This document shows, in pieces, positions 10,917-53,186 of a stretch of DNA of 64,000 nt; the first letter of the stretch is position 1; every line of letters begins with the position of its first letter. Location: contig JAUVNS010000002.1 in assembly GCA_030599585.1 (NCBI GenBank), positions 128,001-192,000 on the forward strand, given 5' to 3'. The notes beneath the pieces were generated by a model. The model did not search any database. It worked only from the letters and a program-made list of their open reading frames with translations, and was not told the DNA's origin. The DNA comes from Promethearchaeota archaeon. GTDB taxonomy: Archaea; Asgardarchaeota; Lokiarchaeia; Sigyniarchaeales; SOKP01. The translations under genes and the position numbers were made by a program.

Positions 10917-11089
10917 ATACCGTTTAAGCTCTTACTAGAGCCCTTAATTAGTTCTAATTATGAAATAAAATAAAAAGAATAAATAATTATGTTTTTTCAC
11001 AAAACTAAAATTTTATTAATTAGATATTTTACTATAAAAGTAAGTTACACTATAAATTAAAGTAAAATTGATTTTAAATCCGATGTATT

Positions 11090-12298
11090 ATGTCTGAAGA
11101 GGAAGCAAAAAGCGTTGTGATTAAAGACTTTTTCAAAAGGTCTGTGTTAATCAACGAATTAGATGAAGTGTTAAAATTCAAACCAGATTCGTTAATTGGA
11201 ATTGATCAAATTTCCTCAGACAAATTAGTAGAAAATAATGTAAAAACCATCGAGGAGCTAGCGAAACTATCGATCGAAAGTCTTCCAACTATTGAAGAAA
11301 TTCCTCCTAAAATTCTTCACAAATGGGTAAGAATCGCACAAGTACTTGAAAAAGCAATTAGAGAGAAAATAAAAACCCATAAGAAAATTTTAATGATAGG
11401 TTTAGATAATGGGGGAAAAACTAGCATTTTAGCAGTTCTCCAGGATAAATTTTCAATTATTAAGTCTCTTCTCCCCACAAGGGGAGTTAAACGCGAAAGA
11501 CTGGACTTTTTTGGTTACCCCATACTTAGTTGGGATTTGGGAGGTCAGGTGCAATATCGCGAAAAATTATATTTTAACAGACCTGAATTGTTCTTTACTG
11601 AAGCTGATTTAATACTTTATGTTATCGACACACAAGATAATGATAGATTTGCTGAAGCTGCAAATTATTTCCGTCAAGTATTAAAAGCATTGGTAGAATT
11701 AGATGAATCCCCTCCAACCATGATAGTTCTCTCAAAGAGCGATAAAGATATTCGAACTTCTCTCGAATGGCAAAATAATGTAACTGCAATAAAAAATAAA
11801 TTCAACAACATAATAGGCGAATATGGAAATTTAACAATCAGCTATTCTGATACAACTATATATCAGAAAGAAACTATAATGCAAATGTTCAGTGAAGCTT
11901 TGAAATTAGTTTCTGAAACTTCAGAGATAATTGAGAATATCATAGAGGATTTTACTCATACTATTGAAGGCAAAGCTGCGAGCTTAATTTCAATGGATGG
12001 TTTAATCTTTGGAAGCTTCACGAGCTCAGATATTGATGAAGCCTTGTTAAATAATACAGCACTAATTATGCAAACGCTTTCGAACTTTCATAGCTCGATA
12101 GGGTTAACTAGAGAACCATCAATAACGCTTGATTTTCCCTTAAATGGATTTTCAATTCGAGGAGAAAAACTTTTTGAATATTCTGAGCTAAAAATACCTG
12201 TATATTTGTGGTTACTTAGTGATAATTTCGAGCTATTAAAGGAGAAAATCGATTATTTCAAACAACAGCTACTACCTTTGATAAATTTATTTCTATAA
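11090..12298 (+). CDS. Arf-family small GTPase with N-terminal HhH-like region and C-terminal roadblock-like domain
   Basis: G1 GLDNGGKT, G2 PT, G3 WDLGGQ, G4 SKSD; C-terminal AASLISMDGLIFGS roadblock-like strand. Confidence 0.85.
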   Translation: MSEEEAKSVVIKDFFKRSVLINELDEVLKFKPDSLIGIDQISSDKLVENNVKTIEELAKLSIESLPTIEEIPPKILHKWVRIAQVLEKAIREKIKTHKKILMIGLDNGGKTSILAVLQDKFSIIKSLLPTRGVKRERLDFFGYPILSWDLGGQVQYREKLYFNRPELFFTEADLILYVIDTQDNDRFAEAANYFRQVLKALVELDESPPTMIVLSKSDKDIRTSLEWQNNVTAIKNKFNNIIGEYGNLTISYSDTTIYQKETIMQMFSEALKLVSETSEIIENIIEDFTHTIEGKAASLISMDGLIFGSFTSSDIDEALLNNTALIMQTLSNFHSSIGLTREPSITLDFPLNGFSIRGEKLFEYSELKIPVYLWLLSDNFELLKEKIDYFKQQLLPLINLFL

Positions 12299-12411
12299 CC
12301 AAATATTTTTTCGTAAGTTATCATTTAGGCTTTATTTGCTCAAAACTTCTTTTGTTGAAATTATAACTTTGAAAATAAAGAATAGAAAATGTAAAAAAGA
12401 AAAATTCTACC

Positions 12412-12951
12412 ATGGTAAAACATAGAAAAACGGGAGCATATGAACACTTTTGTGTTCTTATTTTCGCACAAGGAATTTGGAAAGAAACTGATAAGGACAG
12501 TGTCAGAAATTTAATAATGGAAAAACTAAAAAGTTTGAAAGGGGCAACTTATAATATATTCCATAAGTTAACTTATCGAGATCAGATGCCTATTTATGCG
12601 GATTGCCATATATGCCAACCTATCTATAAAATGTTTGAGGAAATTAAGGGGAATAACGATGGGATTCTGTATCAAGGCCACCACTATCTTATTCCAGAAG
12701 ATGATTTTGAAGACATGAAACATTTAGCAAACTTGATTGTTTCTCACAGTAAAGTTAAAAAAATTTATTTATTATATCTTGATGGTTTCAAAGAGATTAA
12801 GAAAACTATTCTAAGCGAAATGAATTTAGAAGAATTTAAAGAAAAATTAAAATTCAAAAAATCTAGTATTAATGATTTTATCTTGATGATTGACAATAAT
12901 AAATTTAAGAATAGAACAGTCTATGAAATATCTAAAAGCCATTTCCTTTAA
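12412..12951 (+). CDS. Hypothetical protein
   Basis: 179-aa ORF with one CxxC and no recognised family. Confidence 0.6.
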   Translation: MVKHRKTGAYEHFCVLIFAQGIWKETDKDSVRNLIMEKLKSLKGATYNIFHKLTYRDQMPIYADCHICQPIYKMFEEIKGNNDGILYQGHHYLIPEDDFEDMKHLANLIVSHSKVKKIYLLYLDGFKEIKKTILSEMNLEEFKEKLKFKKSSINDFILMIDNNKFKNRTVYEISKSHFL

Positions 12952-38112: not shown

Positions 38113-40098
38113 ATGGCTAATGATGTAGTATTAGCATTGGTTCTTGGAGTAATTTTTGGGTGTGTATTTTTCATTGTAGATATATATAATGAAAATAAAA
38201 CCAAAGAGATAAATACATCACTTATTGCTGGTGTAACGATTACGTATTTTTTTATCATATTATTACCTGAAATAAACTCGGGTTTGGCAGAACTTTCATT
38301 TGGATTGTATAAATTTATAGGTATTCTAATTGGGTTTTCTTCTATTCATCTTACCGAAAAATTTATATTGTTAAGAGTAGAGCAAAAATCTCAATTAAAA
38401 TTGAAGGAAATATTTAAAGAAGAAGCCGAAATAATCGAAAAAGAAAAAGAGTTTGAGAAATCTTTAATAAATAAATTAGTGGAGCCCAACAAAGATAATC
38501 AAACAGTTGAGAATTTGGTCGAAAAATTATATGCATTAGAAGAAATAAATAAAATCCAAGAAATATGGGTTAAAGAAGAACAGAGATTAAAGGAGAAAAT
38601 CTACAAAGCCGACCTTGAAAAACTCTCCTATTTAAATATTCTCTCGGCAACAAAAGAAGTAAGTAACGTACAAAAATTATGTGCAGAAGAAGAAAGGATG
38701 CTTGAGAGTTCTTTACTGAAACATTTATTGAAAAAAAACCATGAAAATCCTGCCTATAATCTTTTAACCAAAAAATTGCAGATGATTGCAGAAATACGGC
38801 AAAAAAATATAGAATTTGGTGAAAAAGCTGACAACCTGATAGCAGTTTTAATAACAAGTTTAATGGCAGATAAACGAGATAAAATTTCAAAAGAAAAATT
38901 TCTTGAAAAACTGAATACAATAGATAACATACATCAAATACTAGATGCAGGTTTAAAGGCTGAAAAAGAAATCGGTAAAGTAAAAATTGGAGATACACGT
39001 GTTCAACAATCAGAAAAGAGAGCAACCAAACATTTATATGCCTTAGAAGTGTTAAGAAAAATTCAAGAAGCATGTATAGAAAAAGAAAAAAGACTTCAGC
39101 ATGAATTAATGGAAATTGGGCATAACCGGCTTTCGCTTCTAAATAAATTTTCAGCCTTAAAAGAGATAAGTAGAATTAGGTTGAAATGTGTAAAAGAAGA
39201 AATGAATCTTGAGAAAAAACTAATTAAGAAAGACCAGGATATTTTTTCAAAGAAACATTTAATCGAAAAACTAAATTCATTAAAGGAAATAAGTAGAACC
39301 CTAGAAGAAACATTATTAAAAGAGAGAATTCTTATGAATTCATTGATCCATAAACTAATGAAGAATGATGAACACGACAAACTTTCGATAAAAGAATTAA
39401 ATGAAAAAATATCTGAGTTAGGAGAACTACATAAAATCCAAGAAGATCGTGTTGACCAGGAAAGAAACATCGAGAGATCTATAATTTTTAGTATATCAAG
39501 AGATGATGGTGAAAGATTTTCATTACAAGAATTAGCCATGAAATTAGATACATTCTGTCAGCGTGAAGAAGAACTTGAAATACAAGATTATAATTTAAAA
39601 GTTAAGATACAAAACCGTATAAACGAGCATTTAGATGAACTTCACGGCTACACCAATTTTGTTTATCATTTAATTATTGGAATCATACTTTTCGAACTGC
39701 TAACATTTGATTTTATTACTGCAATTATGTTTTTTATTTTTGCACTATTCAAAGCGTTGACATCAAAAACATCAAATGATATTCAACTCTTTCCCGATAT
39801 AGAAGTAAATGAAGAACATAATATCCGACTTTATCAAAAGATCATAATAGCATCCGCTGGTTTAATAGGAATTTTTATTGGTTTAATGTTAAACGTTGTG
39901 TTTAACCTTCCAATGGAAATAATATTTGTGTTGTTTTCATTCATTTCAGGAGTCATCCTCTACACAATTATTAGAGAAGTTTTACCCGAAAACGAAAGCG
40001 GACGACCTCTCTATTTCTTATTAGGCATAGTCTTATTCTTAATAATAATAATTACATTCCAATCCGTTTTTTCTTTATTTACTCCTCCTGGTCTTTAA
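38113..40098 (+). CDS. ZIP-like membrane protein with ~380-aa inserted helical repeat region
   Basis: 3 N-terminal TMs (AGVTITYFFIILLPE, HLTEK) plus 5 C-terminal TMs (HLIIG, FISGVILYTIIREVLPE) separated by charged repeats. Confidence 0.65.
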   Translation: MANDVVLALVLGVIFGCVFFIVDIYNENKTKEINTSLIAGVTITYFFIILLPEINSGLAELSFGLYKFIGILIGFSSIHLTEKFILLRVEQKSQLKLKEIFKEEAEIIEKEKEFEKSLINKLVEPNKDNQTVENLVEKLYALEEINKIQEIWVKEEQRLKEKIYKADLEKLSYLNILSATKEVSNVQKLCAEEERMLESSLLKHLLKKNHENPAYNLLTKKLQMIAEIRQKNIEFGEKADNLIAVLITSLMADKRDKISKEKFLEKLNTIDNIHQILDAGLKAEKEIGKVKIGDTRVQQSEKRATKHLYALEVLRKIQEACIEKEKRLQHELMEIGHNRLSLLNKFSALKEISRIRLKCVKEEMNLEKKLIKKDQDIFSKKHLIEKLNSLKEISRTLEETLLKERILMNSLIHKLMKNDEHDKLSIKELNEKISELGELHKIQEDRVDQERNIERSIIFSISRDDGERFSLQELAMKLDTFCQREEELEIQDYNLKVKIQNRINEHLDELHGYTNFVYHLIIGIILFELLTFDFITAIMFFIFALFKALTSKTSNDIQLFPDIEVNEEHNIRLYQKIIIASAGLIGIFIGLMLNVVFNLPMEIIFVLFSFISGVILYTIIREVLPENESGRPLYFLLGIVLFLIIIITFQSVFSLFTPPGL

Positions 40099-40268
40099 CA
40101 GAGGAAAAAATTAAAAGAATTAAACCATATATCCTGTTTACAAGACTTCTTGTTATATTCTCTTGTGAATAAAAGTAATAAACACTTTAAAAATTAATAA
40201 TTTATAGTATCTATAATGTAAAATTTTCTTTAATATTAGAAAATCAAAAATTAAAGGTAAAATTTTAT

Positions 40269-40925
40269 CTACTGATATAATAAAACTCGGATTAAATCCG
40301 CAATATCGTGTACCCTATCTGCCATTTGTTCTAAAAGAACAATCGAATCTCTAACCCTTAATAATGTTCTTAAGTCTTCAACATTAGTATATATGAATTC
40401 AAGAAATTGCCTGTATGTTTTATCTATCTTTGATTCAAGCTCGTGAATAGAAGTAGTGTTCTCAAAGACTATATCTGGCTGATCTCTCAAATGTTTTATA
40501 GTGGTTTTTAAAATATCAACCATCTCAATTATCTCGTTCAATAATTTATGGTATCTCTTTTTAATTTCCTTTTCTTTTTTTTCTTTTAGGTTGATATTCC
40601 CTAACATATCGACAAATTCGAGGGGGTAATTTATAATATTATCCATCCTCAAAACTAAATTTACGTAAGCCCCCATCTTAAATGCTTGTGCTTCGGAAAA
40701 ATTTTGAATGAGACGAATTTTTAATTCATCGCCTTCTTCTTCAGATAGTTGCATCTTAACCTTTTTCTTTTCCAAGGTTTTTTTATTATTCTCGAAATCT
40801 TCGGCCCACGAAGTGTAATATACAGCCATATCACCTGTGACGCTATATATTATTCTTGAATGTTCTATGAGTAATGTTATTATTTCTTCTCTTACTTTTC
40901 TGAGGGATGACATTTTGAAAATCAC
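40269..40925 (-). CDS. DUF47 / PhoU-like phosphate transport regulator
   Basis: EEEGDELK, RMDNI, ELESKID, LEQMADRVHDIAD. Confidence 0.85.
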   Translation of the reverse strand: MIFKMSSLRKVREEIITLLIEHSRIIYSVTGDMAVYYTSWAEDFENNKKTLEKKKVKMQLSEEEGDELKIRLIQNFSEAQAFKMGAYVNLVLRMDNIINYPLEFVDMLGNINLKEKKEKEIKKRYHKLLNEIIEMVDILKTTIKHLRDQPDIVFENTTSIHELESKIDKTYRQFLEFIYTNVEDLRTLLRVRDSIVLLEQMADRVHDIADLIRVLLYQ

Positions 40926-41128
40926 TAAATTTTATATATCTAAGAATATAATATGATTAAATAAATAAAAATCATCAGTTTTTAACATTATCTAACTCAA
41001 AAAGATTATTAGCTTCAAGTATTTATAAATATTATAAGGGAGTATACACCTTATCTTTAAAAATTAGATTAATTTACACAATAGAACTATATTTTGAAAA
41101 AGAATTATAACGGTGTTTTTTAACAACA

Positions 41129-41905
41129 ATGCAATTAAAATCTTTAATTAAAAAGTGGCGCAAATATTCTGAACTATCAAATTTAGGAATAATAGTTCGT
41201 CGAAAATTCTTTAACAACGCCTTTGATGGGGCGCTTACTATTGCGGGCATAGTTAGTGGAAGTTTTATTATATTTCTTTCAAATCCAGCTCAAATTCTAA
41301 GTTCAGCCATTATTATAATAACGGGTTTTTCCACTGCTGTAGCAATTGGCATTAGTGGTTTATGGGGGGCTTTTCTTTCTGAAGAAGCCGAAAGAAAGAA
41401 AAAAATGACTGATTTAAAAAAAGATATGGTAATTTTTGAAGAAGATGAGAAAGGCAAAACAAATTTTAAAGAGATTGATTGTCTAAATAACGATGAGAAA
41501 GAAATTTTAGAAGAACAAGAGATTCAAAAAGCAATGATAACCCCCATAAATTTAAATCACTCTAATAATAAAAATTCTTTAAAGGAAAATAAAAATAAAA
41601 AAAATAATGCATCAATAATCGAACAATCTGAAAGATTTGCCACCATTATCGCATCTTTAGTCGACGGGGGAGCTCCTGTTTTAGGATCGGTACTTCCTTT
41701 GATTCCGTTTTTCTTTGGAGATACATTATCTTTATTTCATTTCATAATTTCTTATGGAGTTTTAATATCTATATTGATTTATTTAGGTATTTTTTTAGGA
41801 AAAATCTCTGGCGGGGGTCATGTTAAGTACGCAATGCATTTAGTTACAGCGGGTGTTGTGACATTACTAGTTTCTCTAATGTTACAATTAGTAATTCCTA
41901 CTTAA
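41129..41905 (+). CDS. VIT1/CCC1 family metal transporter
   Basis: RRKFFNNAFDG, ISGLWGAFLSEEAE, PLIPF. Confidence 0.85.
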   Translation: MQLKSLIKKWRKYSELSNLGIIVRRKFFNNAFDGALTIAGIVSGSFIIFLSNPAQILSSAIIIITGFSTAVAIGISGLWGAFLSEEAERKKKMTDLKKDMVIFEEDEKGKTNFKEIDCLNNDEKEILEEQEIQKAMITPINLNHSNNKNSLKENKNKKNNASIIEQSERFATIIASLVDGGAPVLGSVLPLIPFFFGDTLSLFHFIISYGVLISILIYLGIFLGKISGGGHVKYAMHLVTAGVVTLLVSLMLQLVIPT

Positions 41906-42020
41906 TTTAGCCTTCATCTATAACAAAATATCAAAAAGTTGTGAATAGAAAAAATATTTCGAAAAAACTTAACAAAAAAATCATAAAAATTAGCTTAAAT
42001 CTTATTAAAGTTAAAATAGA

Positions 42021-42734
42021 ATGATAGAAAGATTTAAAACGTACGCAAAAATTTCTGATTTTGGATCTATTGCCCGTCGTTATTTTGTAAATAACTTTTA
42101 CGACGGAATGTTAACTATTATTGGCATTCTATTAGGATTTTTTATACTCATATTTAAAGAAGGACAACAAACTGTAGATAGTCATATTGTATTATTAACA
42201 GGGCTCGCAACTTCAATTTCAATGTTTATGTCGGGATTAAGTGGTTCATACATATCTGAAAAAGCAGAACAGAAGAGATCGAAATCAGAGTTAGATAAGG
42301 CTATGGTAATATTGAAGGAAGAGGACGAAGAAGATAAGTTATTAGACAAAAATGAAATCGAGAAAGCAATGTTGACGGTTAATTTTAATGATAAAAATCG
42401 AATAAAAAATCTAAATTTAAAAAAATCAAATTATAAAAGAAGGAAAGCAAAGACACTACAAGAAAAGGCAGAAAGATTTGCTAGCGTAATTGTATCGTTA
42501 GTAAATGGATGTGCGCCGCTTTTAGGTGGAATTGTTCCATTAATTCCGTTTTTTTTTACTCTAAAAGCAACATTTATTTTCTTCATCTATTCTTTTTTAA
42601 TTGTCTTTATGTGCATTGTTCTTCTAGGCGTTTTTGTAGGTTTTATTTCTCGAGAATCATTATGGAAAAATGTTCTTAAAATGCTAGTCGCTTTTGGTCT
42701 CACTATAATAATTTCAATGCTTCTACTAGATTAA
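42021..42734 (+). CDS. VIT1/CCC1 family metal transporter (tandem paralogue)
   Basis: RRYFVNNFYDG, SGLSGSYISEKAE, PLIPF. Confidence 0.85.
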   Translation: MIERFKTYAKISDFGSIARRYFVNNFYDGMLTIIGILLGFFILIFKEGQQTVDSHIVLLTGLATSISMFMSGLSGSYISEKAEQKRSKSELDKAMVILKEEDEEDKLLDKNEIEKAMLTVNFNDKNRIKNLNLKKSNYKRRKAKTLQEKAERFASVIVSLVNGCAPLLGGIVPLIPFFFTLKATFIFFIYSFLIVFMCIVLLGVFVGFISRESLWKNVLKMLVAFGLTIIISMLLLD

Positions 42735-42814: not shown

Positions 42815-43591
42815 TTGACTTTTATAGGTATTGATATTGGTTCTCTTGCCACAAAAATCGTTTTGCTCAGCGAGGGAAAGATGATAGATCACCGTACAGA
42901 ACGCTCAACTTATGATTTTAAAAAGATAGGTCATAATTTATTCGATGACTTATTGGATAAAAATAGTTTGAAAAAATCTGATGTGTTCGTTATGAGTACC
43001 GGTTATGGGCGGAATACGATCGATATTGCTGATGATCGGGTCACTGAAATTACTGCCCACGCAAAAGGTACGCAATACTTCTTCCCAGATGTACATTCAG
43101 TTATAGACATTGGTGGTCAAGACAGTAAGGCTATTGTAATATCTAATAAAACGGGAAATGTTGTAGATTTTCAAATGAACGATAAATGCGCAGCAGGGAC
43201 TGGCAGATTTTTAGAAGTTATGGCTCATGCTTTGGAGGTTCCCATTGACCAATTTGGAGATTTAGCTTTAAGATCTAACAAATCGGCTTCAATAAGTTCC
43301 ACATGTACTGTTTTCGCAGAGAGTGAAGTCATAAGCTTGTTTGCGAGGGGCGCTTCAAAAGAAGAAATTGCCAGTGGGATTCATAGATCAATTGCGAGAA
43401 GAGTTGCTGGAATGTCTAAACGTATCGGAGTTGGGCCAAAATTAGTTTTTTGTGGTGGAGTTGCGTTAAACCCTGCTGTGAAAAAATATCTTGAAGACGA
43501 ACTTGGATATGAAGTCGAAATTCCCGAATTTCCACAATTAACGGGAGCTATCGGTGCTGCTTTAATCGCAGAAGCGAACAACTCGCAGTAG
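42815..43591 (+). CDS. hgdC: 2-hydroxyacyl-CoA dehydratase activator (HgdC/BadG ASKHA ATPase)
   Basis: GIDIGS, TGYGR, DIGGQDSK, MNDKCAAGTGRFLE, STCTVFAESE. Confidence 0.93.
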   Translation: MTFIGIDIGSLATKIVLLSEGKMIDHRTERSTYDFKKIGHNLFDDLLDKNSLKKSDVFVMSTGYGRNTIDIADDRVTEITAHAKGTQYFFPDVHSVIDIGGQDSKAIVISNKTGNVVDFQMNDKCAAGTGRFLEVMAHALEVPIDQFGDLALRSNKSASISSTCTVFAESEVISLFARGASKEEIASGIHRSIARRVAGMSKRIGVGPKLVFCGGVALNPAVKKYLEDELGYEVEIPEFPQLTGAIGAALIAEANNSQ

Positions 43592-43703
43592 ATGAGAAAT
43601 ATTCTTTTGACTTAATATTTTTATCTATATTTTAAGTCGGTAAACTTTTTTAAAGAATTAATCTTTTTCTGACAAATAACATTAAACAGTTGACTTTATC
43701 ACG

Positions 43704-44843
43704 ATGGATGACTCTAATCTACTATCTGATTTTACTTTCTTCCTTAAGGAAAAAAAACAGGAAGGGATCAAAATTGTCGCTTACTTATCCCACGATAACA
43801 TTCCCGAGGAGTTGATTGACGCTGCTGGTTTTTTCCCCTTAAGGTTAATCTTTGGAGGGAACGATGAACTAATGGACGCAAGTCACGATTATTTGCCACC
43901 TTCCACATGTGCATTTGCACAATCATGTATTGGACTATTTTCAATTAAGCCAAACTACTACAAGTTTTTGGAATTGGTTGATTACATCATAGTTTCCAAT
44001 CACTGCGTATCAGACATTTGCGTTTCAGAAATCATTTCCAAATACTTTAACATTCCTCGTTTGAATTTTTATGTTTCGTATACAAAGAATGAAAACAGTC
44101 TAAAATATTTTAAGCTCGAATTACAAGACTTTAGAAATCAACTTGAATCTACTTTGGATAGAAAGATATCCGATGAGGATATACACAACAGCATATTAAA
44201 ATTCAATAATTTCAAAAAAAAGTTATTAGAAATTAATGAACTGGAAATGTCAGGCTCGGAAAAATTGAAATTAATTCATAAATCAATGCTATTTGGACCA
44301 GATTTTCTTCACGACTTAGAAAATTTGATTCAAAAATTTAAAGACGCACCTCAACCAGTTTCCAATACAGCTATAGAAGTTTTACTTACGGGGTGCTCTA
44401 TCTTTATTGATGACAACATGATAGACTTGATTGAGGAGGGGGGAGGTAACATTGTTTTTTTTGATACCTGGATTGGGAACCATTATTATTCACAAATTAT
44501 CGAAGATAATCTAATAGATATAGAGAAAGATCCTTTGGATTTGTTAGTTCTTAAGTTTAAAAATAATATTTATAGTGACCATAGCGTACCTGACTTTCTT
44601 GAACGGAAAGTATCACATATTCTGAGATATTCTGAAAATTACGCAAAAAATAAAGGCAGAAAGTTAGGGGTCATCAATCACATAATTAAGTTTTGCGACC
44701 ATATTTCGCTCATGTCTTCTTTCTTAAAGGATACATTACAAAAAAAGGGGATTCAAGTACTAAATTTAGAAAGAGATTATTCCAGAGCTAACCGTGGCCA
44801 ATTATCAACAAGAATAGAAGCGTATTTGGAGATGATGAAATGA
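43704..44843 (+). CDS. 2-hydroxyacyl-CoA dehydratase subunit (HgdA/B, D-component family)
   Basis: PEELIDAAG, TCAF, IKFCD, LERDY..GQLSTRIEAY. Confidence 0.88.
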   Translation: MDDSNLLSDFTFFLKEKKQEGIKIVAYLSHDNIPEELIDAAGFFPLRLIFGGNDELMDASHDYLPPSTCAFAQSCIGLFSIKPNYYKFLELVDYIIVSNHCVSDICVSEIISKYFNIPRLNFYVSYTKNENSLKYFKLELQDFRNQLESTLDRKISDEDIHNSILKFNNFKKKLLEINELEMSGSEKLKLIHKSMLFGPDFLHDLENLIQKFKDAPQPVSNTAIEVLLTGCSIFIDDNMIDLIEEGGGNIVFFDTWIGNHYYSQIIEDNLIDIEKDPLDLLVLKFKNNIYSDHSVPDFLERKVSHILRYSENYAKNKGRKLGVINHIIKFCDHISLMSSFLKDTLQKKGIQVLNLERDYSRANRGQLSTRIEAYLEMMK

Positions 44844-46198
44844 GTCTAATTGCCGATGAGATAGTATCTTTTAGTTCAGTATTACGTATTGCTTACAATC
44901 TGTTAAACGGGAGAAACTACCTAAAAAGGAAGAAATTTCGAGATAAAGAAAAATTAGTAGCTATAACTTTGCCGTTTTCGGATTTAGCTTTTGCTGCAGG
45001 CACGGTACCAGTTTTACCAATAAGGATGCACAAATTTGAAATAAGTCAATACCTAAATTACCTAGGTTCTGCTTCTAGTATTTTTGGGTGGAATTCTGTT
45101 TCGAATTTTCTAAGCTTTGTTAAAAATCTGGGCATAGAACAAGTAAGTAAAATTATTGACGATATTATAGAGGGTGTAATTGATACCATTAATATAAAAT
45201 TCAACGAAATGTATGACGTAGGAGTTGAAAATGGAATTTCAAGTGATTTCTGTTACGGATTAAAAAGTTTAGCTGGCATGTATTTTACCAAAGGTCAAAA
45301 TGTTGATGCTAGTTTAAATGTTACTATTCGATGTAGTGCGTATAATAAATATTTAGAGTCTTTGAAATCAATTCATGAAGGACCAAAACAAATCTGGGTT
45401 GATATTCCACCGAGAAATCTGGGAAACTCAGTAGAATTACTCACTGATAATATTTCAAACGCCTTAAACGAGTTCGAGAAGCTAACAGGAAATAAGGTAT
45501 CAGATAACGATTTGAGAGCCCATTTTAAAATTGGAAATCAAGTAAAAAGGTCGTATAAGAACATAATTTACGATATAAGTGCTTCTGACTTTTATCCTTG
45601 CAATCCCGCAACTTTTAGTGAAATTATGGCACTGTTAAGTATTACATTTCAAGATTATAACTCTAATGCGGTTCGATATAGAGACAACATCGTATCCCTA
45701 GAAAAAGAGATGAGAGAAAGAATTAGAAAGGGAGTTGGTATGGATGTGTCAAAAATGCCGAGGATTTTCGTGACCCCCATGTTCGGAGGATGGGAACCCA
45801 AAAGTCATGATATAATATATGAGTTAGGAGGAAGAGCTTTATACGCTGATTGGGAACTACTAAAATTCTTGGAAGAAATACCAACTGGATCACACACAAA
45901 TCCTTCTGAAGAATACGCACGATTTCTTATGAATGCTACAGAAACAGGAATAGGTTGTGATAATGACAAATTAACAGATTCCTACTTGGAAATGGCAAGA
46001 AAGCTAAATGCAGACGGTATAATATTCTTTCAATTATTTGGGTGCCATTCCATCTCAAATTGTTATGCGATGTTAAGAGAGAAAGTAAGACGAGAACTTG
46101 AAATACCGATTACAGCAATTACTTTCAATAAAATTGGGGATAATGTAGAGCAAGTGAAGACAAGACTCGGTGCCTTTATGGAAATGTTTAAATTTTAG
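44840..46198 (+). CDS. 2-hydroxyacyl-CoA dehydratase subunit (HgdA/B family)
   Basis: DFCYG, RCS, ADGIIF..GCHS, QVKTRLGAF; ATGA overlap with the upstream gene. Confidence 0.85.
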   Translation: MSLIADEIVSFSSVLRIAYNLLNGRNYLKRKKFRDKEKLVAITLPFSDLAFAAGTVPVLPIRMHKFEISQYLNYLGSASSIFGWNSVSNFLSFVKNLGIEQVSKIIDDIIEGVIDTINIKFNEMYDVGVENGISSDFCYGLKSLAGMYFTKGQNVDASLNVTIRCSAYNKYLESLKSIHEGPKQIWVDIPPRNLGNSVELLTDNISNALNEFEKLTGNKVSDNDLRAHFKIGNQVKRSYKNIIYDISASDFYPCNPATFSEIMALLSITFQDYNSNAVRYRDNIVSLEKEMRERIRKGVGMDVSKMPRIFVTPMFGGWEPKSHDIIYELGGRALYADWELLKFLEEIPTGSHTNPSEEYARFLMNATETGIGCDNDKLTDSYLEMARKLNADGIIFFQLFGCHSISNCYAMLREKVRRELEIPITAITFNKIGDNVEQVKTRLGAFMEMFKF

Positions 46199-46259
46199 AT
46201 ATTTATCCTTATTTTGGAAGAAATTAAGTTTAATAATAACGTCATGAAGTAAAACAAAT

Positions 46260-47366
46260 TTAATGACTGATTTTTGCTTTTGAACTTCTTTTTATTTCAA
46301 ACACTTCTTCTCCTTTCATTTGTTTCGTTATATAGTCAGCCAAATTTAAGTTCAAAATGTTTCTTCCCTCTTTTTTAAAATCACATCCACATAAAATCGA
46401 AGATAAATTTATGATAGAATCAATTATAGGTGTAGAAATTTCTAAGAATTCTCCTAATGACGCCATAGGTACAAGTCCAGTTGGAATATCCTCAGTGAAA
46501 TATCTAGTTATTAATTCTTTTGGAGCAGCAATGTTTTTATATGCTTTTACTTTTTGAATAGCTTTATAGATACTGTTTGCTTTAAATCCATAAGATTTCT
46601 CCACCCATTTACAAAAATTTATTTGTTTTAAATTTAACTTTTCAAAAATCTTTCTGAATTCCATTTGAAGAGTCTCAAGAATTTCACAAGTATGTGAAGA
46701 TGCCCCTTGTGCATAAAATTTGAACGTTCTTCCATAATCTATTGCACTAGCGTTCATTAATGAGAGAGTTGGATGCAATAACATCCCAATATTATTTAAT
46801 GTAACTTGCAGATAATTATCATTAGGATTCATTTGGGGAAAAACATCTTTCAATGTATCACTGATGAAAAACGTATCCTTCTCTGGAAAAGCCGAAAATT
46901 CAACAGAATCCTTGAATGTAAGAATTTGGACTTTATTTTTTTTCAATTGTCTTGATGTAAAAAGTAATGTTTGAGTTTCAGCAATAAAAATAGGGAGATT
47001 CCCTCTTTCATTTTCTATTATACTTCTAACCTCTACAGCTCCAAAAGTTCTACCTGGATTCAACAATATTGTCTGATCGTTTGTTAAAAAAGGTGCAATG
47101 TTTTTAGCAATACTTTTATGTGCTGAAGCAGGAGTTACTATTAAAATAATATCTACATCCTTAACGGCCAAATGTAATTTTTGTGTAACTAGATCAATGG
47201 GAAAAAAACCTTTTAATTTTCCTTTTGCTTTTATACCTCCCTTCTTTTTGATTTCACAAATTCTAGAATATGAACGGTTATAAAGGTTCACAGAATGTCC
47301 TTTAGATGATAAATATGCCGCAAACGCTCGACCACCATTTCCGGCTCCAATAACACAGAATCTCAT
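46260..47366 (-). CDS. NAD(P)-dependent opine (octopine/nopaline) dehydrogenase family protein
   Basis: GAGNGG, LNPGRTFGA, AETQT, NIGMLLHP, RYFTEDIPTGLVP. Confidence 0.9.
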   Translation of the reverse strand: MRFCVIGAGNGGRAFAAYLSSKGHSVNLYNRSYSRICEIKKKGGIKAKGKLKGFFPIDLVTQKLHLAVKDVDIILIVTPASAHKSIAKNIAPFLTNDQTILLNPGRTFGAVEVRSIIENERGNLPIFIAETQTLLFTSRQLKKNKVQILTFKDSVEFSAFPEKDTFFISDTLKDVFPQMNPNDNYLQVTLNNIGMLLHPTLSLMNASAIDYGRTFKFYAQGASSHTCEILETLQMEFRKIFEKLNLKQINFCKWVEKSYGFKANSIYKAIQKVKAYKNIAAPKELITRYFTEDIPTGLVPMASLGEFLEISTPIIDSIINLSSILCGCDFKKEGRNILNLNLADYITKQMKGEEVFEIKRSSKAKISH

Positions 47367-49117
47367 TTATCCAACACCTTTGTGATGGATTTTTCTTTTT
47401 GTTGTAATGAATTAGTAATATTTTTAAATGGGCTATTAAAAATAATGTCTTTTATTCTTTCAAGTTCATCGTAAGGTTTTTGTTGAGACTCATTCCATGA
47501 GTAGCAAGCACCATTAATTAAATTGGTTTTAATTTTACCTAACGCAAATTTATTATTGTTCAAATGTGGAGCGTCAAATATACCATATTTTACGAGTCGA
47601 TTTAAAACTTTATAATTGGTATATGGACTTTTCGATTCATCTTCATTTTTTGTTAAATGTGGTATTAAGTCGACTATCCATTTGGCTTGTCCTATTAATT
47701 CTTCTTTCCTTTCCTCAATTTTTTTATCTATAATGTTAATTTTACTAGAATAAACGTTATCTATAACTTGATCCACTATTTTACAACTTTCTATTATATT
47801 TTCTGGTCGAGCTGTATGGCTAGCTTCAGAAAAACTAACTACATGAACAATGTCTGGTCTAATAGCTAATTGAACAAACGTCGCTAGAGCAAGCTGTCCT
47901 TTGGCTTTATCCAAATCTAATGGGAAACTTGCTAATCCCGTCCGAACTTGTTTAATTATCGTAAAGTTCTCATTGACGAGCGTTTGAAGTAACTCATCTT
48001 TAGCGAGAATTTTTGCTAAGTCCATATCAAGTGAACTTGATGGAGGTGTATTAAACATATATTGTGCTATAAAATTTTTGACGCCTAATTTTTTCGCTAT
48101 AATTCCACTTAAATACATATCGGCAACAGCTATAGCATCAGGAGCATTTCGAAGGCTCCATTGATGTGGATCGTTTACTTCAACGGGAATATTATGCTTT
48201 CCGTACCATTCTATTGCGTTTAGATGCTGTTTAATCGATTCTTTTAAAGTTAAAGGCCCTCTTCTATCCATTTGATTGAACCAAAAAATAGGAATTGCCG
48301 CCCAAGCATTTTGAATTGTATCTCGATACAATTTTCCTAATTTAATGAAATCGCGTGTTCCAGCATATATCCTTAACATAGGATAGTTTCCAGTTAATCT
48401 TGCTTGATGGAGCTTTTCGAAATCTTGTTGAGTGCGCAAAGGAACCCCGCCCGCTCCAGATGATTCTTTATCTTGATTTTCAGGGTGGAAGTAATTTGCT
48501 TGCGTATTTTGATCGGGCGCAATTGAAATAACATCTAAGACTTTTGCTTTAGCAATTTTTTTTATTCCTTCGATTGTTTCATCGAAATTAGGTAATCCAA
48601 AGTGCGCTCTAATTACAGGATAAGGTTTCTTCCATTTTATTCGAGAAATAATGTCCATAGGGATTTCTGTTTTACTTTCTGATTTTCCTTTCTCATTTCT
48701 TAAGATAGAAATTAATTCAAATTTTGATTCCCCTCCGACAAAATATTCATCGATCCCTTCATATTTTCTTGCAATCTCAACTACTTCAGGTGTTCCCGCA
48801 AAAAATAATTTTTTTGGTTTTTTTTCTAATTTTATAAAACTTTTGAAAAATTCATTTAGTAAAGGTCTAACAGTGTCTGCCGTTAAACGATAACTTAACC
48901 CTACAATGTTAGGGTCATACTTTTTAATTTGATCGATAACAATTGAAATAGGGGTAGCAGGTCCTAAAAATAAATTATTATAACCTAACTGTTTTGAAAT
49001 TTGAATGAAATTATATGTACCAGCTACATGAACGCATTGTCCTATACATGCAGTTAAAATTCTTTTATTTTTTTTTTTCTCTAAATATGTGTTAGTCATC
49101 ATTATTGAATAAAACAC
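47363..49117 (-). CDS. Cobalamin-binding protein: N-terminal B12 domain plus aminomutase-like TIM barrel
   Basis: CVHVAG..GLSYRL..FVGG base-off/His-on pattern; DVISI..GAGGVPLR resembles the OraE barrel segment; stop overlaps the opine dehydrogenase start (ATGA). Confidence 0.75.
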   Translation of the reverse strand: MFYSIMMTNTYLEKKKNKRILTACIGQCVHVAGTYNFIQISKQLGYNNLFLGPATPISIVIDQIKKYDPNIVGLSYRLTADTVRPLLNEFFKSFIKLEKKPKKLFFAGTPEVVEIARKYEGIDEYFVGGESKFELISILRNEKGKSESKTEIPMDIISRIKWKKPYPVIRAHFGLPNFDETIEGIKKIAKAKVLDVISIAPDQNTQANYFHPENQDKESSGAGGVPLRTQQDFEKLHQARLTGNYPMLRIYAGTRDFIKLGKLYRDTIQNAWAAIPIFWFNQMDRRGPLTLKESIKQHLNAIEWYGKHNIPVEVNDPHQWSLRNAPDAIAVADMYLSGIIAKKLGVKNFIAQYMFNTPPSSSLDMDLAKILAKDELLQTLVNENFTIIKQVRTGLASFPLDLDKAKGQLALATFVQLAIRPDIVHVVSFSEASHTARPENIIESCKIVDQVIDNVYSSKINIIDKKIEERKEELIGQAKWIVDLIPHLTKNEDESKSPYTNYKVLNRLVKYGIFDAPHLNNNKFALGKIKTNLINGACYSWNESQQKPYDELERIKDIIFNSPFKNITNSLQQKEKSITKVLDK

Positions 49118-49454
49118 CCTTTAAACAATATTTGAACTACGCATTAAAGAAACTTACTTAATAACGAGTAGTGGTTATTAAAATTCGATCGAATAATAAC
49201 AGTATATAACCAGTTGCTCTAGTTATATCTCTAATTTATTGGATACAAAAATATATTCTAATATTTAGATAATTAATACCGTTTCAAGTTTCAATGCAAA
49301 ATTCTTCCTATCATACTAAATCTATTATAATATTTAAAATTAAGCGTCCTTTAAATAGAATAAGAGCCAAATTTTAATTCTGCAATTATTTAGATGCTTT
49401 TTTTAGAACTTTTTTTAATAAAAATTAAAAATTATCCTTAAAAAAAAAAAAAAA

Positions 49455-49528
49455 TTCATATTTTCATTTTCTTTTTTTAAAATTTGTTTCGTTACCATTC
49501 AGAATTAAATCATAAACCCATGGAATTT
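49455..49528. repeat. ~73-bp direct repeat, copy 1
   Basis: Matches 51657-51728 with 6 substitutions and 2 indels by manual alignment. Confidence 0.9.
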
Positions 49529-50613
49529 TAAATATCGATAAATTTCTTATGGATATAGGGACTAGTCATTGCTCTTAAAAGAGCTTCATAATTTAAATCA
49601 AAATGCAATTTTTGTCCAATCTGAAATTGATTATCTCTTATATCTACAACTAAGTAGTCGCTTGAAGCTCCAAGAATATTAATACTTTCTTTAGGATTTA
49701 ATCCTTTTACTGCAATATCTTGTCTACCTATATTTAAAAGTGCTTGTGTTCTAATTGTAACGCTTTTTTTTCCGTTGTTAATTTTTTTATTATAAGTTTG
49801 GACACTTTCCCCAAATGCATTTGATACAATAATCCCTTTGGGGATCATAGATCTTTGTTTTAATTCAACAATTTCTGTTATTAACCTAAAAGCGTCTGTA
49901 TAAAGATTTGGAATTGGTTCATAATTTATTGTTTCTTTTCCTAGAAATATAGCTTCTCCAATTCTAAAATTATTTATTTCACCAATGTTTTTACACGATT
50001 TAAACCAGTTAAAATTTGCAGAATTTCCTCCTGAAACAAATTCTAATTCCAATTCAAATTTATCCTTGATCCTAAAGACTAATTTTGAAAATTCATTCAT
50101 ATTTTCATCTGTCGGGATGATACCACCAAAACATTTGAAATTTGTACCAATTCCACTTAAATTTATATTTTTTAGTTTTAAAATCTCTTCGACAAAAAAT
50201 TCAATATTGAAGATATTTATTCCTTCTCTTAAATCTCCCATATCTACCATTAGAATTATATTATGTATCTTTTTTTGTTTAACGGCTTCATTTGAAAGCA
50301 TTCTTATGGTCTTTAATTCTGAATTTAGGCTATAATTTGCGTATTTAACAACAAGAGGAATTTCAGTAATGCTTGGAATACGAATTAAAACAAATTGAGC
50401 TCTAATATTATTTTTTTTCATTTTAATAATATTGTTAATTCGTGAATCTCCTAAATACTCTATTCCTCCTTGAACCAATGTCATTGCAATAGTAGGGTTT
50501 CCTAAGACAAGTTTTGTAATTCCAATAATAGATACATTTCGCTGAGTTAAAAGATTCTTTAATAATTTTGCGTTATGTCTAATTTTTCTCAAATTTATTT
50601 CAAGTATTGCCAT
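49528..50613 (-). CDS. PLP-dependent alanine/ornithine racemase family (Orr-like)
   Basis: GITK (PLP Lys), DSRI, NSE, MVDMGDLREG, SGGNS, RIGE, GASSD, YEALLRAMTSPY. Confidence 0.9.
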   Translation of the reverse strand: MAILEINLRKIRHNAKLLKNLLTQRNVSIIGITKLVLGNPTIAMTLVQGGIEYLGDSRINNIIKMKKNNIRAQFVLIRIPSITEIPLVVKYANYSLNSELKTIRMLSNEAVKQKKIHNIILMVDMGDLREGINIFNIEFFVEEILKLKNINLSGIGTNFKCFGGIIPTDENMNEFSKLVFRIKDKFELELEFVSGGNSANFNWFKSCKNIGEINNFRIGEAIFLGKETINYEPIPNLYTDAFRLITEIVELKQRSMIPKGIIVSNAFGESVQTYNKKINNGKKSVTIRTQALLNIGRQDIAVKGLNPKESINILGASSDYLVVDIRDNQFQIGQKLHFDLNYEALLRAMTSPYIHKKFIDI

Positions 50614-50655
50614 TTTAATTCACATAATACAATTTGTTTTTAGTTTGAATGAAAG

Positions 50656-51651
50656 TTATCCAATTCTTCTTAATGCTTCTTTTATAATTTCATCTAAGAA
50701 TTCACTACTTTTTTTGTTTTCTGCAATTGCCATAAAGCCCATGTAACTATGAGGTTTATCTTTTGGTGTACACATTAATCCTGCAAAACAATTTATTTCT
50801 AATAAAAAAGGACCTTCTTCTGATAAGATCATGTCTACACGACCATAATCTCTAAGATTTATCGCTTGAAATGCTGAAATAGCTAATTTCTGTAATTCTT
50901 TATACTGTTTCGGAGTTAATTTTGCAGGGCATTGGAATTTATCGTCATCTAACTCTTTTTTATTAAATGTTAAGAATTTTTCCTTTTCCTTGTGTATTAT
51001 TTCTAATAAAGGTAAGGCTCTAATCTTATTTCCATTACCAATAATTCCACATGTTATTTCCCTACCTTTTAAAAATTTTTCAATAAGAACAGGTTGATTT
51101 ATTGTGTTTAATCTTTTTTCAACTCCTTTAATTAATTCGTTATATGAACAGATAAGTGAGGATTCGTCGATTCCAGAACTTCCTCTCCCTTGAGAGGGTT
51201 TTATAAATAAAGGATAATCAAATGGCTTGTTTTTCTTAAAAATTTCACAATCCTCTTTTGATCTTGCTAAAATATAAGGTGATGTTGGTAATCCTTTTTT
51301 AAACCACAAGTCTTTAGTAAGAACCTTATCGGTTGCTATAACGCATCCAAAAAGATCAGACCCTACATAAGGTATCTCTAATTCTTCTAAAATAGCTGTT
51401 TCAACAATGCTGGATACATTAAATACGATATCAATGTCAAGACTTTTTAAATCAGAAATAATATTGTCGTTCCATTTTAATATTTTTACATCATAACCCG
51501 CTTCATTTAAAGCACTTAAATGATGTTCTACTTCTTGATTAGTTGTATCGATAATATTCTCGTTTTTAGCAAATTTCTCTTGTATTGAAAAATTTCCTCG
51601 TTTTTTCTCAAGTACGCAAATTTTTATTTTTTCCTTAGTCATCTTGATCAA
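50656..51651 (-). CDS. D-Ala-D-Ala ligase-like ATP-grasp enzyme
   Basis: IPYVGS, DK, FIKP..GSSGI, EKFLKGREIT, RDYGRVD, LEIN..GL. Confidence 0.88.
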   Translation of the reverse strand: MIKMTKEKIKICVLEKKRGNFSIQEKFAKNENIIDTTNQEVEHHLSALNEAGYDVKILKWNDNIISDLKSLDIDIVFNVSSIVETAILEELEIPYVGSDLFGCVIATDKVLTKDLWFKKGLPTSPYILARSKEDCEIFKKNKPFDYPLFIKPSQGRGSSGIDESSLICSYNELIKGVEKRLNTINQPVLIEKFLKGREITCGIIGNGNKIRALPLLEIIHKEKEKFLTFNKKELDDDKFQCPAKLTPKQYKELQKLAISAFQAINLRDYGRVDMILSEEGPFLLEINCFAGLMCTPKDKPHSYMGFMAIAENKKSSEFLDEIIKEALRRIG

Positions 51652-51656
51652 ATTTT

Positions 51657-51728
51657 TTCACATTTTCATTTTCTTCTTTTAAAATTTGTTTCGTTATCAT
51701 TCAGAATAAACTTAAACCCATATAATTT
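51657..51728. repeat. ~73-bp direct repeat, copy 2
   Basis: Matches 49455-49528. Confidence 0.9.
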
Positions 51729-51821: not shown

Positions 51822-53186
51822 ACGAGCATATACGCTGACGATGTCCTTAGTTTTACATCCGTTCTAAAAATGGCGTCAAATTTCTTAACGGGTAGAGATT
51901 ACTTAAAAAAGAAAAAATTTAGAGAAAAGAAGAAGTTAATTTCAGTTGCCTTAGGATTTCCAGATTTAGCTTTTGCTGTTGGAGCAGTTCCAGTTTTTCC
52001 AATTCGAATGGAAACCTTCGAATTTAGCAAGTATTTGATGCCTTTACAATCTGCTACATCTGTATTAGGTTGGGAATTGACATCAAAATTTTTGGATTTT
52101 GCTCGTCAGTTCGATGTTCTAAAAATTGTTGATAAAATTCTTGAAGATGTTATTACTTCGATAAACAAGAAATATAATCAAATGTACGAATTAGGCGTCA
52201 GTAATGGCGTTCCTTCGGAATTATGTTATGGGATTAACGCTCTTTATGGAATGCATAAATCTAAGGGTAAGAATTTAGACGCTAATCTTACATTCGCAAT
52301 GCGATGTGGCAGTTGGAATACTTTTTCTGAATCGTTAAAAACGACAGTACCGAGTCAAATCATAATCGATGTTCCTTCAAAGAATTCAGATAATGAGGAT
52401 ATTGCTTTAAAGGAAATGGTTAATAATGTCAAGAATGGAATTAGTGAACTAGAGAAGATAACGGGAAATTTCGTATCAGATAATAGTTTACAGAAGCAGT
52501 TTCGTATAGGCAATCAAGTGAAAAGATTTTATAAAACTATCCTTTACGAGATTGGCGATTCTAACTTTTATCCATGCAATCCCGCTACATTCGCAGAAAT
52601 TTTAGCGCTCTTAACTATCACTTTTCAAGATTATAATTCAAACTCTCAAAGATATTTAGAAAATCTGAGTAATTTAGTTAAAGAGATGAGAGAGCGGATT
52701 AGAAAGGGCATAGGGATGGATGTTTCTCATATGCCAAAAGTATTGTTTGCCCCAATGTACCAAGGATGGGAACCAGCCGTGCACGAAATTATCTATGAAT
52801 TAGGGGGTAGAATAATTTATGCCGATTGGGATATGTTAGGTTTTTTAGAAGAAATTCCCATATCTCAAAAATCTGATCCTATAGAAGAATATGCGCGTTT
52901 TCTACTAAACGCTTCAACCAAAGGAATAGGATGTGACGATGAAAACATGACTAATTCGTATTTAAAAGCTGCTGAAAACATGAACATTGATGGATTAATC
53001 TTCAATCAAGTATATGGGTGTCCATCAATCTCAAAGACTTATGAGAGGCTAAAAGAAAAACTAAAAGCGGAGTTTAACATACCAGCTATAAGTATTAATT
53101 TCAAAAAAATCGGTGATAATATAGAACAAGTTAGAAAACCTCTCATACCGTTTATGGAAAGATTAAAAGATACAAGAAATTTTTAA
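51822..53186 (+). CDS. 2-hydroxyacyl-CoA dehydratase subunit, paralogue of 44840-46198 (tracked ATG 51870; homology extends to ACG 51822)
   Basis: Shared FYPCNPATF, ITFQDYNSN, KEMRERIRKG.GMDVS, GIGCD; N-terminus TSIYADDVLSFTSVLK aligns with MSLIADEIVSFSSVLR. Confidence 0.85.
   Translation, partial: TSIYADDVLSFTSVLKMASNFLTGRDYLKKKKFREKKKLISVALGFPDLAFAVGAVPVFPIRMETFEFSKYLMPLQSATSVLGWELTSKFLDFARQFDVLKIVDKILEDVITSINKKYNQMYELGVSNGVPSELCYGINALYGMHKSKGKNLDANLTFAMRCGSWNTFSESLKTTVPSQIIIDVPSKNSDNEDIALKEMVNNVKNGISELEKITGNFVSDNSLQKQFRIGNQVKRFYKTILYEIGDSNFYPCNPATFAEILALLTITFQDYNSNSQRYLENLSNLVKEMRERIRKGIGMDVSHMPKVLFAPMYQGWEPAVHEIIYELGGRIIYADWDMLGFLEEIPISQKSDPIEEYARFLLNASTKGIGCDDENMTNSYLKAAENMNIDGLIFNQVYGCPSISKTYERLKEKLKAEFNIPAISINFKKIGDNIEQVRKPLIPFMERLKDTRNF

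Follow-up and report, generated by a model that had tools for sequence, protein, structure and literature searches.

A cobalamin enzyme and an opine dehydrogenase at the core of a candidate biosynthetic gene set in Asgard archaea and anaerobic bacteria

Few reactions are known for adenosylcobalamin-dependent isomerases. One of these enzymes, glutamate mutase, has an accessory protein, MutL (GlmL). A glutamate-mutase-type rearrangement is also part of the pyrrolysine route, in which PylB carries out the rearrangement, PylC, an ATP-grasp ligase related to Ddl, uses a D-ornithine-type acid, and PylD is an NAD-dependent dehydrogenase. In the synthesis of the osmolyte N-acetylglutaminylglutamine amide (NAGGN), amide-forming enzymes (the ATP-grasp/acetyltransferase Ngg and the amidotransferase AsnO) cap the carboxylates of an amino-acid-derived solute. 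Here we describe four adjacent genes in a 64,000-nt stretch of a Promethearchaeota genome (the window, whose positions are used throughout). They encode an opine dehydrogenase (OpDH), a single-chain cobalamin enzyme (the mutase), an Orr-like racemase dependent on pyridoxal 5′-phosphate (PLP) and a Ddl-family ATP-grasp ligase. The window, with a G+C content of ~30%, belongs to an assembly of 4.85 Mb in 52 contigs that is 100% complete by marker genes, and the nearest relatives of its genes are found in metagenome-assembled genomes labelled Promethearchaeota or Promethearchaeia, that is, in Lokiarchaeia-type Asgard archaea. We lean towards reading the four genes as the local form of a recurrent biosynthetic gene set that has as its core the mutase and an OpDH resembling N-(1-D-carboxyethyl)-L-norvaline dehydrogenase (CENDH). 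Because the genes recur jointly and appear to have moved as one block, they probably make one small amino-acid-derived molecule.

Recurrence of the core pair and its partners

Using the mutase as a query, we fetched 80 genomic loci (45 Asgard, 3 Heimdall-like and 32 Chloroflexota). OpDH adjoins the mutase in 73 of them, and the remaining seven contigs break off no more than 450 nt from the mutase gene; no further neighbour is common across phyla. The pair is present in 55/151 sampled Asgard genomes and in ~83/201 sampled Anaerolineae genomes. A profile search of 1.84 billion cluster representatives returned 1,039 members of the mutase family at E ≤1e-3, 266 of them at E ≤1e-30; databases label the mutase 'methionine synthase' or 'cobalamin-binding protein'. 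The window's genome has one copy each of mutase and OpDH; some other Asgard genomes have the mutase twice, alone or with OpDH, the copies lying ~9–10 kb apart (L035:1-2054 and 10001-12816; G104:C23:4242-16686).

Time and again, the third gene beside this core encodes an enzyme that forms amides at the expense of ATP. In loci lacking the Ddl-like gene, the pair is often followed by an AsnB-like amidotransferase, or else by another ATP-grasp gene. The amidotransferase is found at loci L193 and L195 and in three copies in a glycan locus (L194), and AsnB-like genes also lie near the pair in six Asgard loci, two Chloroflexota loci and L108. At L196–L198 there is a second, more distant ATP-grasp gene, then a C26 amidase.

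Linkage between the core pair and the ligase–racemase pair was scanned in metagenome contigs searched with the ligase alignment, and the loci were compared by tblastn; many of these contigs are short, and near-duplicates occur among the loci (L137/L139 and L159/L160). Twenty-four loci are well flanked, their sequence extending 3.5 kb or more to either side of the ligase. In 13 of these, OpDH and/or the mutase lie within 6 kb of the ligase: nine loci have racemase, OpDH and mutase, two have racemase and OpDH, and two lack the racemase and have the mutase, either with OpDH or without it. Chance would give ~0.03 neighbours, far fewer than observed, by our own estimate for a single-copy gene in ~40% of genomes of 3–4 Mb. 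At least seven gene orders occur, across diverged paralogues and both domains (Table 1), and the paralogues in the tight operons share just 31% (mutase) and 35% (OpDH) identity with the window proteins. Because the arrangements differ, these data argue for repeated and independent association of the two pairs. Among the 151 sampled Asgard genomes, all five that bear the ligase also have the mutase, although they represent only about three lineages. The window's own arrangement is confined, among the 80 mutase loci, to its six closest relatives. An earlier note on this DNA, made from the sequence alone, had staked its proposal of a shared pathway on the two pairs co-occurring elsewhere, and they do so in several gene orders and in diverged paralogues.

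Exchange of the four genes as an island

We compared the window with two relatives (L004 and L006) by nucleotide identity and by Nei–Gojobori synonymous divergence (dS). Identity is 66–81% in the flanking dehydratase-like genes, 97–100% across ligase and racemase, and 88–97% across the spacer, mutase and OpDH, with sharp edges at ~51650–51707 and ~46257. The corresponding dS values are 1.3–1.8 in the flanks, 0.03–0.06 for ligase and racemase, and 0.15–0.19 for mutase and OpDH. The low dS of the island relative to its flanks indicates that the four genes passed between diverged lineages long after the genomes themselves had separated, either as one block or in two nested events. Non-synonymous to synonymous ratios (dN/dS) of 0.18–0.37 place the island genes under purifying selection.

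Two direct repeats of ~72 nt bracket the ligase–racemase pair exactly. They share a 54-nt core that is 93% identical, are spaced 2,202 nt apart and are the only two copies in the genome; the same spacing recurs in relatives L006 and L112, where the repeats are more decayed. A dispersed mobile element was considered for the repeat and rejected on the basis of its two genomic copies; an extra 449-aa open reading frame in relative L001 has no transposase domain. On the reading that we favour, a 2.2-kb repeat-bracketed ligase–racemase cassette lies upstream of an older mutase–dehydrogenase pair, and the composite 5.4-kb block would since have spread among diverged Lokiarchaeial lineages as one island.

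The earlier note's four minus-strand genes are confirmed by the positions of the open reading frames (Table 1), and direct reading of the sequence bears out both the short ligase–racemase gap of 42 nt and the ATGA overlap of the OpDH start with the mutase stop. The spacer between the two pairs probably holds an archaeal terminator and, after it, a separate promoter for the mutase. From this AT-rich, T15-bearing spacer and the bracketing repeats we infer two transcription units here, ligase–racemase and mutase–OpDH. A single unit of four genes is supported neither by this layout nor by the ~50 of 55 Asgard carriers in which the mutase–OpDH pair has no ligase. A scan for promoters and terminators gave counts near the shuffled expectation, using bacterial models, which do not apply to archaea.

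Table 1. Features of the four-gene locus (window positions) and gene orders found across loci
Feature	Position or loci	Strand	Basis and remarks
OpDH (opine dehydrogenase), 368 aa	46260..47366	-	PF02317, CENDH 1bg6; adjoins mutase
Mutase (single-chain cobalamin enzyme), 584 aa	47363..49117	-	N-terminal B12-binding Rossmann domain, then GlmE-like TIM barrel
AT-rich spacer, 410 nt	49118..49527	-	Direct reading; contains a T15 run (49440-49454, gene strand)
Orr-like fold-type-III PLP racemase, 361 aa	49528..50613	-	PF01168, NF040742; 42 nt downstream of ligase
Ddl-family ATP-grasp ligase, 331 aa	50656..51651	-	PF07478; putatively remodelled substrate sites; first gene of ligase–racemase unit
Direct repeat copy, starting at racemase stop codon	49455..49528		Repeat comparison
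Direct repeat copy, directly upstream of ligase start	51657..51728		Coincides with left edge of high-identity island
Whole four-gene island	46257..51707	-	Nucleotide identity to relatives L004 and L006
OpDH-mutase-ligase-racemase operons	L110, L127, L137, L153, L154, L159, L167		5–50-nt gaps
OpDH-ligase-racemase	L128, L151, L171, L179		Without mutase
Ligase-mutase-OpDH	L117; L083/L108		L083/L108 at 3–5 kb
Mutase-OpDH-ligase	L118; L095		L095 is Chloroflexota genome G205
Divergent layout	L124		
Ligase-racemase-OpDH	L131		
Window's own order	Window		

The four genes are flanked by dehydratase-like genes. A BcrAD/BadFG-type activase gene and two HGD-D (2-hydroxyacyl-CoA dehydratase-like) genes are convergent to OpDH (window 42815-46198), and a third HGD-D gene is divergent from the ligase (51870-53186). 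This HGD-D/activase synteny around mutase–OpDH is kept in many Asgard loci and is absent in Chloroflexota. Just past the dehydratase genes (38113-42734) lie a ZIP-family transporter gene and two VIT1-family iron/manganese transporter genes.

The four enzymes

OpDH scores 131.8 bits on PF02317 (cut-off 30) and aligns over its full length (residues 3–344) with CENDH 1bg6 at 258 bits and E 1e-75; conserved His and Arg-Tyr-x-x-Glu-Asp motifs are visible in that alignment. The protein is thus assigned to the Octopine_DH family, and condensation of an amine with a 2-oxoacid is its predicted reaction. Complex prediction for mutase and OpDH returned a score of 0.00, which gives no verdict and is evidence neither for nor against an interaction.

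Residues 13–91 of the mutase match cobalamin-binding Rossmann domains, including MutS 1be1, and residues 168–489 score 33.4 bits on PF06368, the glutamate mutase E family, where the cut-off is 26.6. For an AlphaFold (AF2) model built from 29 homologues (mean pLDDT 79.8), the best Foldseek matches are the GlmE chains 6h9e_B and 1cb7_B (E ~1e-15, TM 0.63–0.65); next for the barrel come the OraE/KamD aminomutases (E 1e-9 to 1e-11) and then acyl-CoA mutases. Identity to GlmE is 18–21%, the score on the GlmE equivalog model TIGR01503 is 22 bits against a cut-off of 390, and a profile search of the barrel against PDB sequences matched the B12 domain alone. PF09043, the aminomutase-type barrel, finds no match in the mutase, and the 29 aligned members have no invariant Lys in the Rossmann domain (residues 1–150), where OraE/KamE have their PLP site. 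Because GlmE is the best structural match and the aminomutases come second, we model the mutase as a fused GlmS+GlmE-like enzyme of the carbon-skeleton type, not an aminomutase; the 'aminomutase-like' label that it carried in the earlier note does not hold.

The family profile aligns weakly with E. coli O157 GlmE (hhalign probability 28%). This weak alignment puts the invariant R249 on GlmE R149 and the invariant D284 on E171; the Y177/Y181 loop of GlmE is deleted in the mutase, and R66 and R100 lie beyond the alignable region. Such a residue pattern is compatible with a related yet distinct substrate resembling an acidic amino acid. In 29/29 aligned members of the subfamily the cobalamin loop is G-x-C-x-H-x-x-G, and the canonical DxHxxG is not kept; the canonical form is found in a paralogous subfamily and in two Asgard genomes. 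In the latter (L205 and L206, from genomes G050 and G031), homologues 44–45% identical to the window mutase read G-K-D-I-H-V-A-G, and the Cys would therefore be specific to the subfamily rather than universal. Selenocysteine at this position was considered and rejected, as the in-frame stops lie upstream of the true start codons.

In some Anaerolineae relatives the mutase is fused to MutL/GlmL (PF13941, 256 bits), and the OpDH gene again precedes it. Such a fusion speaks for an enzyme with radical adenosylcobalamin chemistry and against a corrinoid protein that transfers methyl groups. The MutL-fused forms, of 1,220–1,390 aa, occur in ~13 sampled Anaerolineae genomes; in one of these (G225, L096:1151-7563), an MttB-family methyltransferase gene and an Octopine_DH gene are followed by a 1,243-aa fusion of B12 domain, GlmE-like barrel and MutL. 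The window's genome encodes a CobA-type adenosyltransferase, and neither a canonical GlmE nor a second Octopine_DH gene was found in it.

The ligase scores 103 bits on PF07478, and its family profile matches solved Ddl structures at ~103 bits. It falls below every curated Ddl cut-off, with 149 bits against 243 on the best NCBIfam Ddl model (NF002378) and 49 bits against 500 on the archaeal pseudomurein Ddl model. The ATP-grasp core and the catalytic and Mg residues are intact (R271, D273, E285 and N287, invariant in 22 family members and aligned with the Ddl core). In an alignment to 4zqi, the HGxxGEDG loop of Ddl, which belongs to the first D-Ala site, is deleted, and ~6 residues with the invariant C294/K299/H301/Y303 are inserted after the Mg ligands, in the loop shaping the second D-Ala site. 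Because the first-site loop is deleted and the second-site loop carries an insertion, the protein is predicted not to be a D-Ala–D-Ala ligase.

The racemase has an alanine-racemase fold (PF01168, 87 bits) and scores 366 bits on racem_Orr (NF040742) in a full-length match, short of the cut-off of 480. In 57 of the 85 ligase loci a racemase gene comes after the ligase, and in eight loci a gene for a histone-deacetylase-family amidohydrolase comes directly after the racemase. Ligase homologues are 65–75% identical in Asgard archaea and 55–60% identical on contigs labelled Anaerolineae, Bacteroidales, Deltaproteobacteria and Methanosarcinaceae; the ligase is rare, with 5/151 Asgard and 3/201 Anaerolineae genomes carrying it. 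Locus L110, on a contig labelled Deltaproteobacteria at NCBI that is probably archaeal given its three TBP genes, has a DUF1611 gene translationally close to a second Orr-like racemase gene, then a phage-integrase-family gene (L110:11667-14849), 3–6 kb downstream of its four-gene operon.

Neighbouring genes

Occasional neighbours of the cluster are three GNAT acetyltransferases with a major facilitator superfamily (MFS) transporter, an EamA transporter, a CitMHS transporter and a class-III aminotransferase. In more distant Asgard archaea, an MFS transporter and a trio of genes stand between the OpDH and dehydratase genes. The trio, seen for example at L009:15420-18027 and in 7–10 Asgard loci, consists of Peptidase_C26/GATase, GGACT (gamma-glutamyl cyclotransferase) and GCS2 (carboxylate-amine ligase); it hints at gamma-glutamyl-amine chemistry around the pair. 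A tblastn search of the window's genome found neither this MFS transporter nor the trio. At L195, an nhaA-I (Li+/Na+) riboswitch (4896-4954; 50 bits against an Rfam gathering score of 37) is followed by a 113-aa open reading frame and then, ~940 nt on, by an OpDH-mutase-AsnB-CitMHS operon. Rfam scans of the window and of ~44 loci, none of them from Bacillota, detected no c-di-AMP riboswitch, the nhaA-I element being the sole related hit.

A proposed route and its alternatives

The reading that we favour is a biosynthetic route to a branched, N-carboxyalkylated, amidated amino-acid derivative. OpDH would join an amino group to a 2-oxoacid with NAD(P)H, giving an N-carboxyalkyl amino acid, and the B12 enzyme would rearrange a glutamate-like carbon skeleton by a radical 1,2-shift, before or after the OpDH step. 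The ATP-dependent amide-forming enzyme that commonly joins this core would here be the Ddl-like ligase, fed by the Orr-like racemase and tying one carboxylate to the D-amino acid that the racemase makes. The product would be a small branched opine-type compound containing a D-amino acid and acting as a solute, metal chelator or decoration. Biosynthesis, leading to a small molecule that is exported or accumulated, is suggested by the consumption of ATP, by the transporter genes nearby and by the capping of carboxylates. A solute is weakly suggested by the nhaA-I riboswitch ~940 nt upstream of one operon and by the NAGGN-like enzyme logic; a chelator is weakly suggested by the staphylopine-like chemistry and by ZIP, VIT, CNNM and CitMHS genes nearby. 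A more far-reaching version is tentative: the mutase may represent a new adenosylcobalamin carbon-skeleton mutase family that acts on an opine-type or glutamyl-derived substrate and, with OpDH, ligase and racemase, yields a new class of branched D-amino-acid-containing N-carboxyalkyl compounds in Asgard archaea and many anaerobic bacteria, the set spreading as an island.

Several observations weigh against a single biosynthetic gene set. The order of steps and the substrates in the scheme above are guesses; the sequence-level link between the mutase and GlmE is weak, as the hhalign probability of 28% indicates; and neither MutL nor a PduO-type adenosyltransferase was found in the window's genome. 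Co-transcription of the two pairs is unlikely here, separated as they are by the T15-bearing spacer. In the well-flanked set, the ligase–racemase pair stands without the core in nine of 24 loci and the ligase stands alone in two. About 50 of the 55 mutase-bearing Asgard genomes have no ligase, so the core pair would have to work without it, and two Heimdall-like genomes that possess both carry ligase and mutase on different contigs.

Much of this evidence also bears on the alternative that survives best, in which the locus holds two unrelated modules, a self-contained mutase–OpDH pair and an independent D-amino-acid dipeptide ligase–racemase cassette inserted beside it by chance. The spacer would then mark the boundary between them, and the repeats, which bracket the ligase–racemase pair only, would delimit the insert; the two tiers of dS suggest two events, most mutase–OpDH genomes have no ligase–racemase pair, and where that pair stands alone it lies, for example, beside ribosomal protein genes, or, in other Asgard genomes, beside ribosomal protein or histone genes. 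A chance insertion sits badly, however, with families that have been rejoined in at least seven orders, among diverged paralogues and in both domains, and with island edges that enclose all four genes. Coincidence is possible for this genome and fits the comparative data poorly, and we judge it unlikely overall.

A catabolic variant of glutamate fermentation could explain the core pair alone. Here the mutase would convert glutamate to 3-methylaspartate, the dehydrogenase would oxidatively deaminate this to 3-methyloxaloacetate, 2-oxobutyrate would follow, and ligase and racemase would be accessory or unrelated. The GlmE-like fold agrees with such a route, as do the invariant R249 and D284 at the positions of GlmE R149 and E171, the failure to find a canonical GlmE or a second Octopine_DH gene in the genome, and the frequency of the pair in amino-acid-fermenting Asgard archaea and Anaerolineae. 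However, the Y177/Y181 loop of GlmE is deleted and identity to GlmE is low, the match of the dehydrogenase to CENDH makes it look like a two-substrate opine enzyme, and the recurrent ATP-consuming amide-forming neighbours point to biosynthesis, which leaves this route improbable. Least probable is an Acetoanaerobium-type ornithine/lysine fermentation, with D-ornithine or D-lysine from the racemase, the B12 enzyme as a new single-chain aminomutase and the dehydrogenase deaminating the shifted amine: the racemase is most like Orr, and the barrel resembles OraE and KamD second only to GlmE in structure, but the B12 enzyme has neither PF09043 nor the invariant Rossmann Lys, a canonical KamD and an adjoining B12-binding gene lie elsewhere in the genome on contig C26, the ligase is left unexplained and most mutase–OpDH loci have no racemase.

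The central proposal of the earlier note, one undescribed amino-acid/opine pathway around a B12 rearrangement, is supported. The two pairs recur together and moved as an island, and no paper in the literature searched connects opine dehydrogenases to a cobalamin or glutamate-mutase-like enzyme or to a cluster of ATP-grasp and racemase genes; the MK-D1 paper (PMC7015854) has nothing on the four-gene cluster. An aminomutase identity for the B12 enzyme, a single transcription unit and the analogies with the Orr and staphylopine systems are not supported. The strict pairing of mutase and OpDH and their recurrent amide-forming partners make the pathway testable, and the mutase family is widespread, with ~1,000 cluster representatives; about one in three of the Asgard and Anaerolineae genomes sampled carries it. 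A product that served as solute or chelator would represent a new class of metabolite, made both by the closest kin of the eukaryote ancestor and by abundant sediment bacteria. The spread of the island in Lokiarchaeia is in itself a clear-cut example of diverged Asgard lineages having recently exchanged genes.

Comparison with known systems

The ornithine racemase Orr belongs to a system whose other parts, OraSE, Ord and OrtAB, have no counterparts in the window. The sole PF09043 protein of the genome is encoded on contig C26, where a canonical lysine 5,6-aminomutase alpha subunit gene (PF09043, 909 bits) is followed by a B12-binding gene (G000:C26:141856-144150), and the earlier analogy with an Orr-fed aminomutase therefore lacks its defining parts. 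Staphylopine and pseudopaline synthesis (CntK racemase, CntL and CntM) shares the logic of a racemase and an opine dehydrogenase making an opine that contains a D-amino acid, and metal-transporter genes (ZIP and VIT) lie near the window locus. The window racemase differs in being a PLP enzyme with an alanine-racemase fold, and the Cnt system has no counterpart of the ATP-grasp ligase and B12 mutase. This analogy, too, had been drawn before, and its defining part is missing: the nicotianamine-synthase-like CntL (PF03059) was not found in the window's complete genome.

Pyrrolysine synthesis has the same combination of rearrangement, ligase and dehydrogenase. PylB, however, is a radical-SAM rather than a cobalamin GlmE-like enzyme, PylD is not an opine dehydrogenase, and the window ligase scores best with Ddl models; Pfam searches of the window, to which the search for these proteins was confined within the genome, revealed no PylB, PylD or PylS. 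The NAGGN route resembles the cluster in that AsnB-like, GNAT and deacetylase genes recur beside it, and differs in having no opine dehydrogenase, B12 enzyme or racemase.

Each half of the core pair has a closer described relative. CENDH from Arthrobacter sp. 1C (1BG6) matches the window OpDH over its full length; the window enzyme differs in its translational coupling to a B12 enzyme, and no such opine dehydrogenase was found in the literature searched. Glutamate mutase GlmS/GlmE with GlmL/MutL (Clostridium cochlearium, PDB 1CB7/6H9E; E. coli O157 ECs_0762-0764) shares with the window mutase a B12 Rossmann domain and a TIM barrel, is its best structural match, with PF06368 above the cut-off, and has its accessory protein MutL fused to some of the window mutase's relatives. 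In contrast to glutamate mutase, the window enzyme is a single chain with the B12 domain at its N terminus and CxHxxG in place of DxHxxG, and it has no methylaspartase neighbour in the window locus: its constant partner is an opine dehydrogenase.

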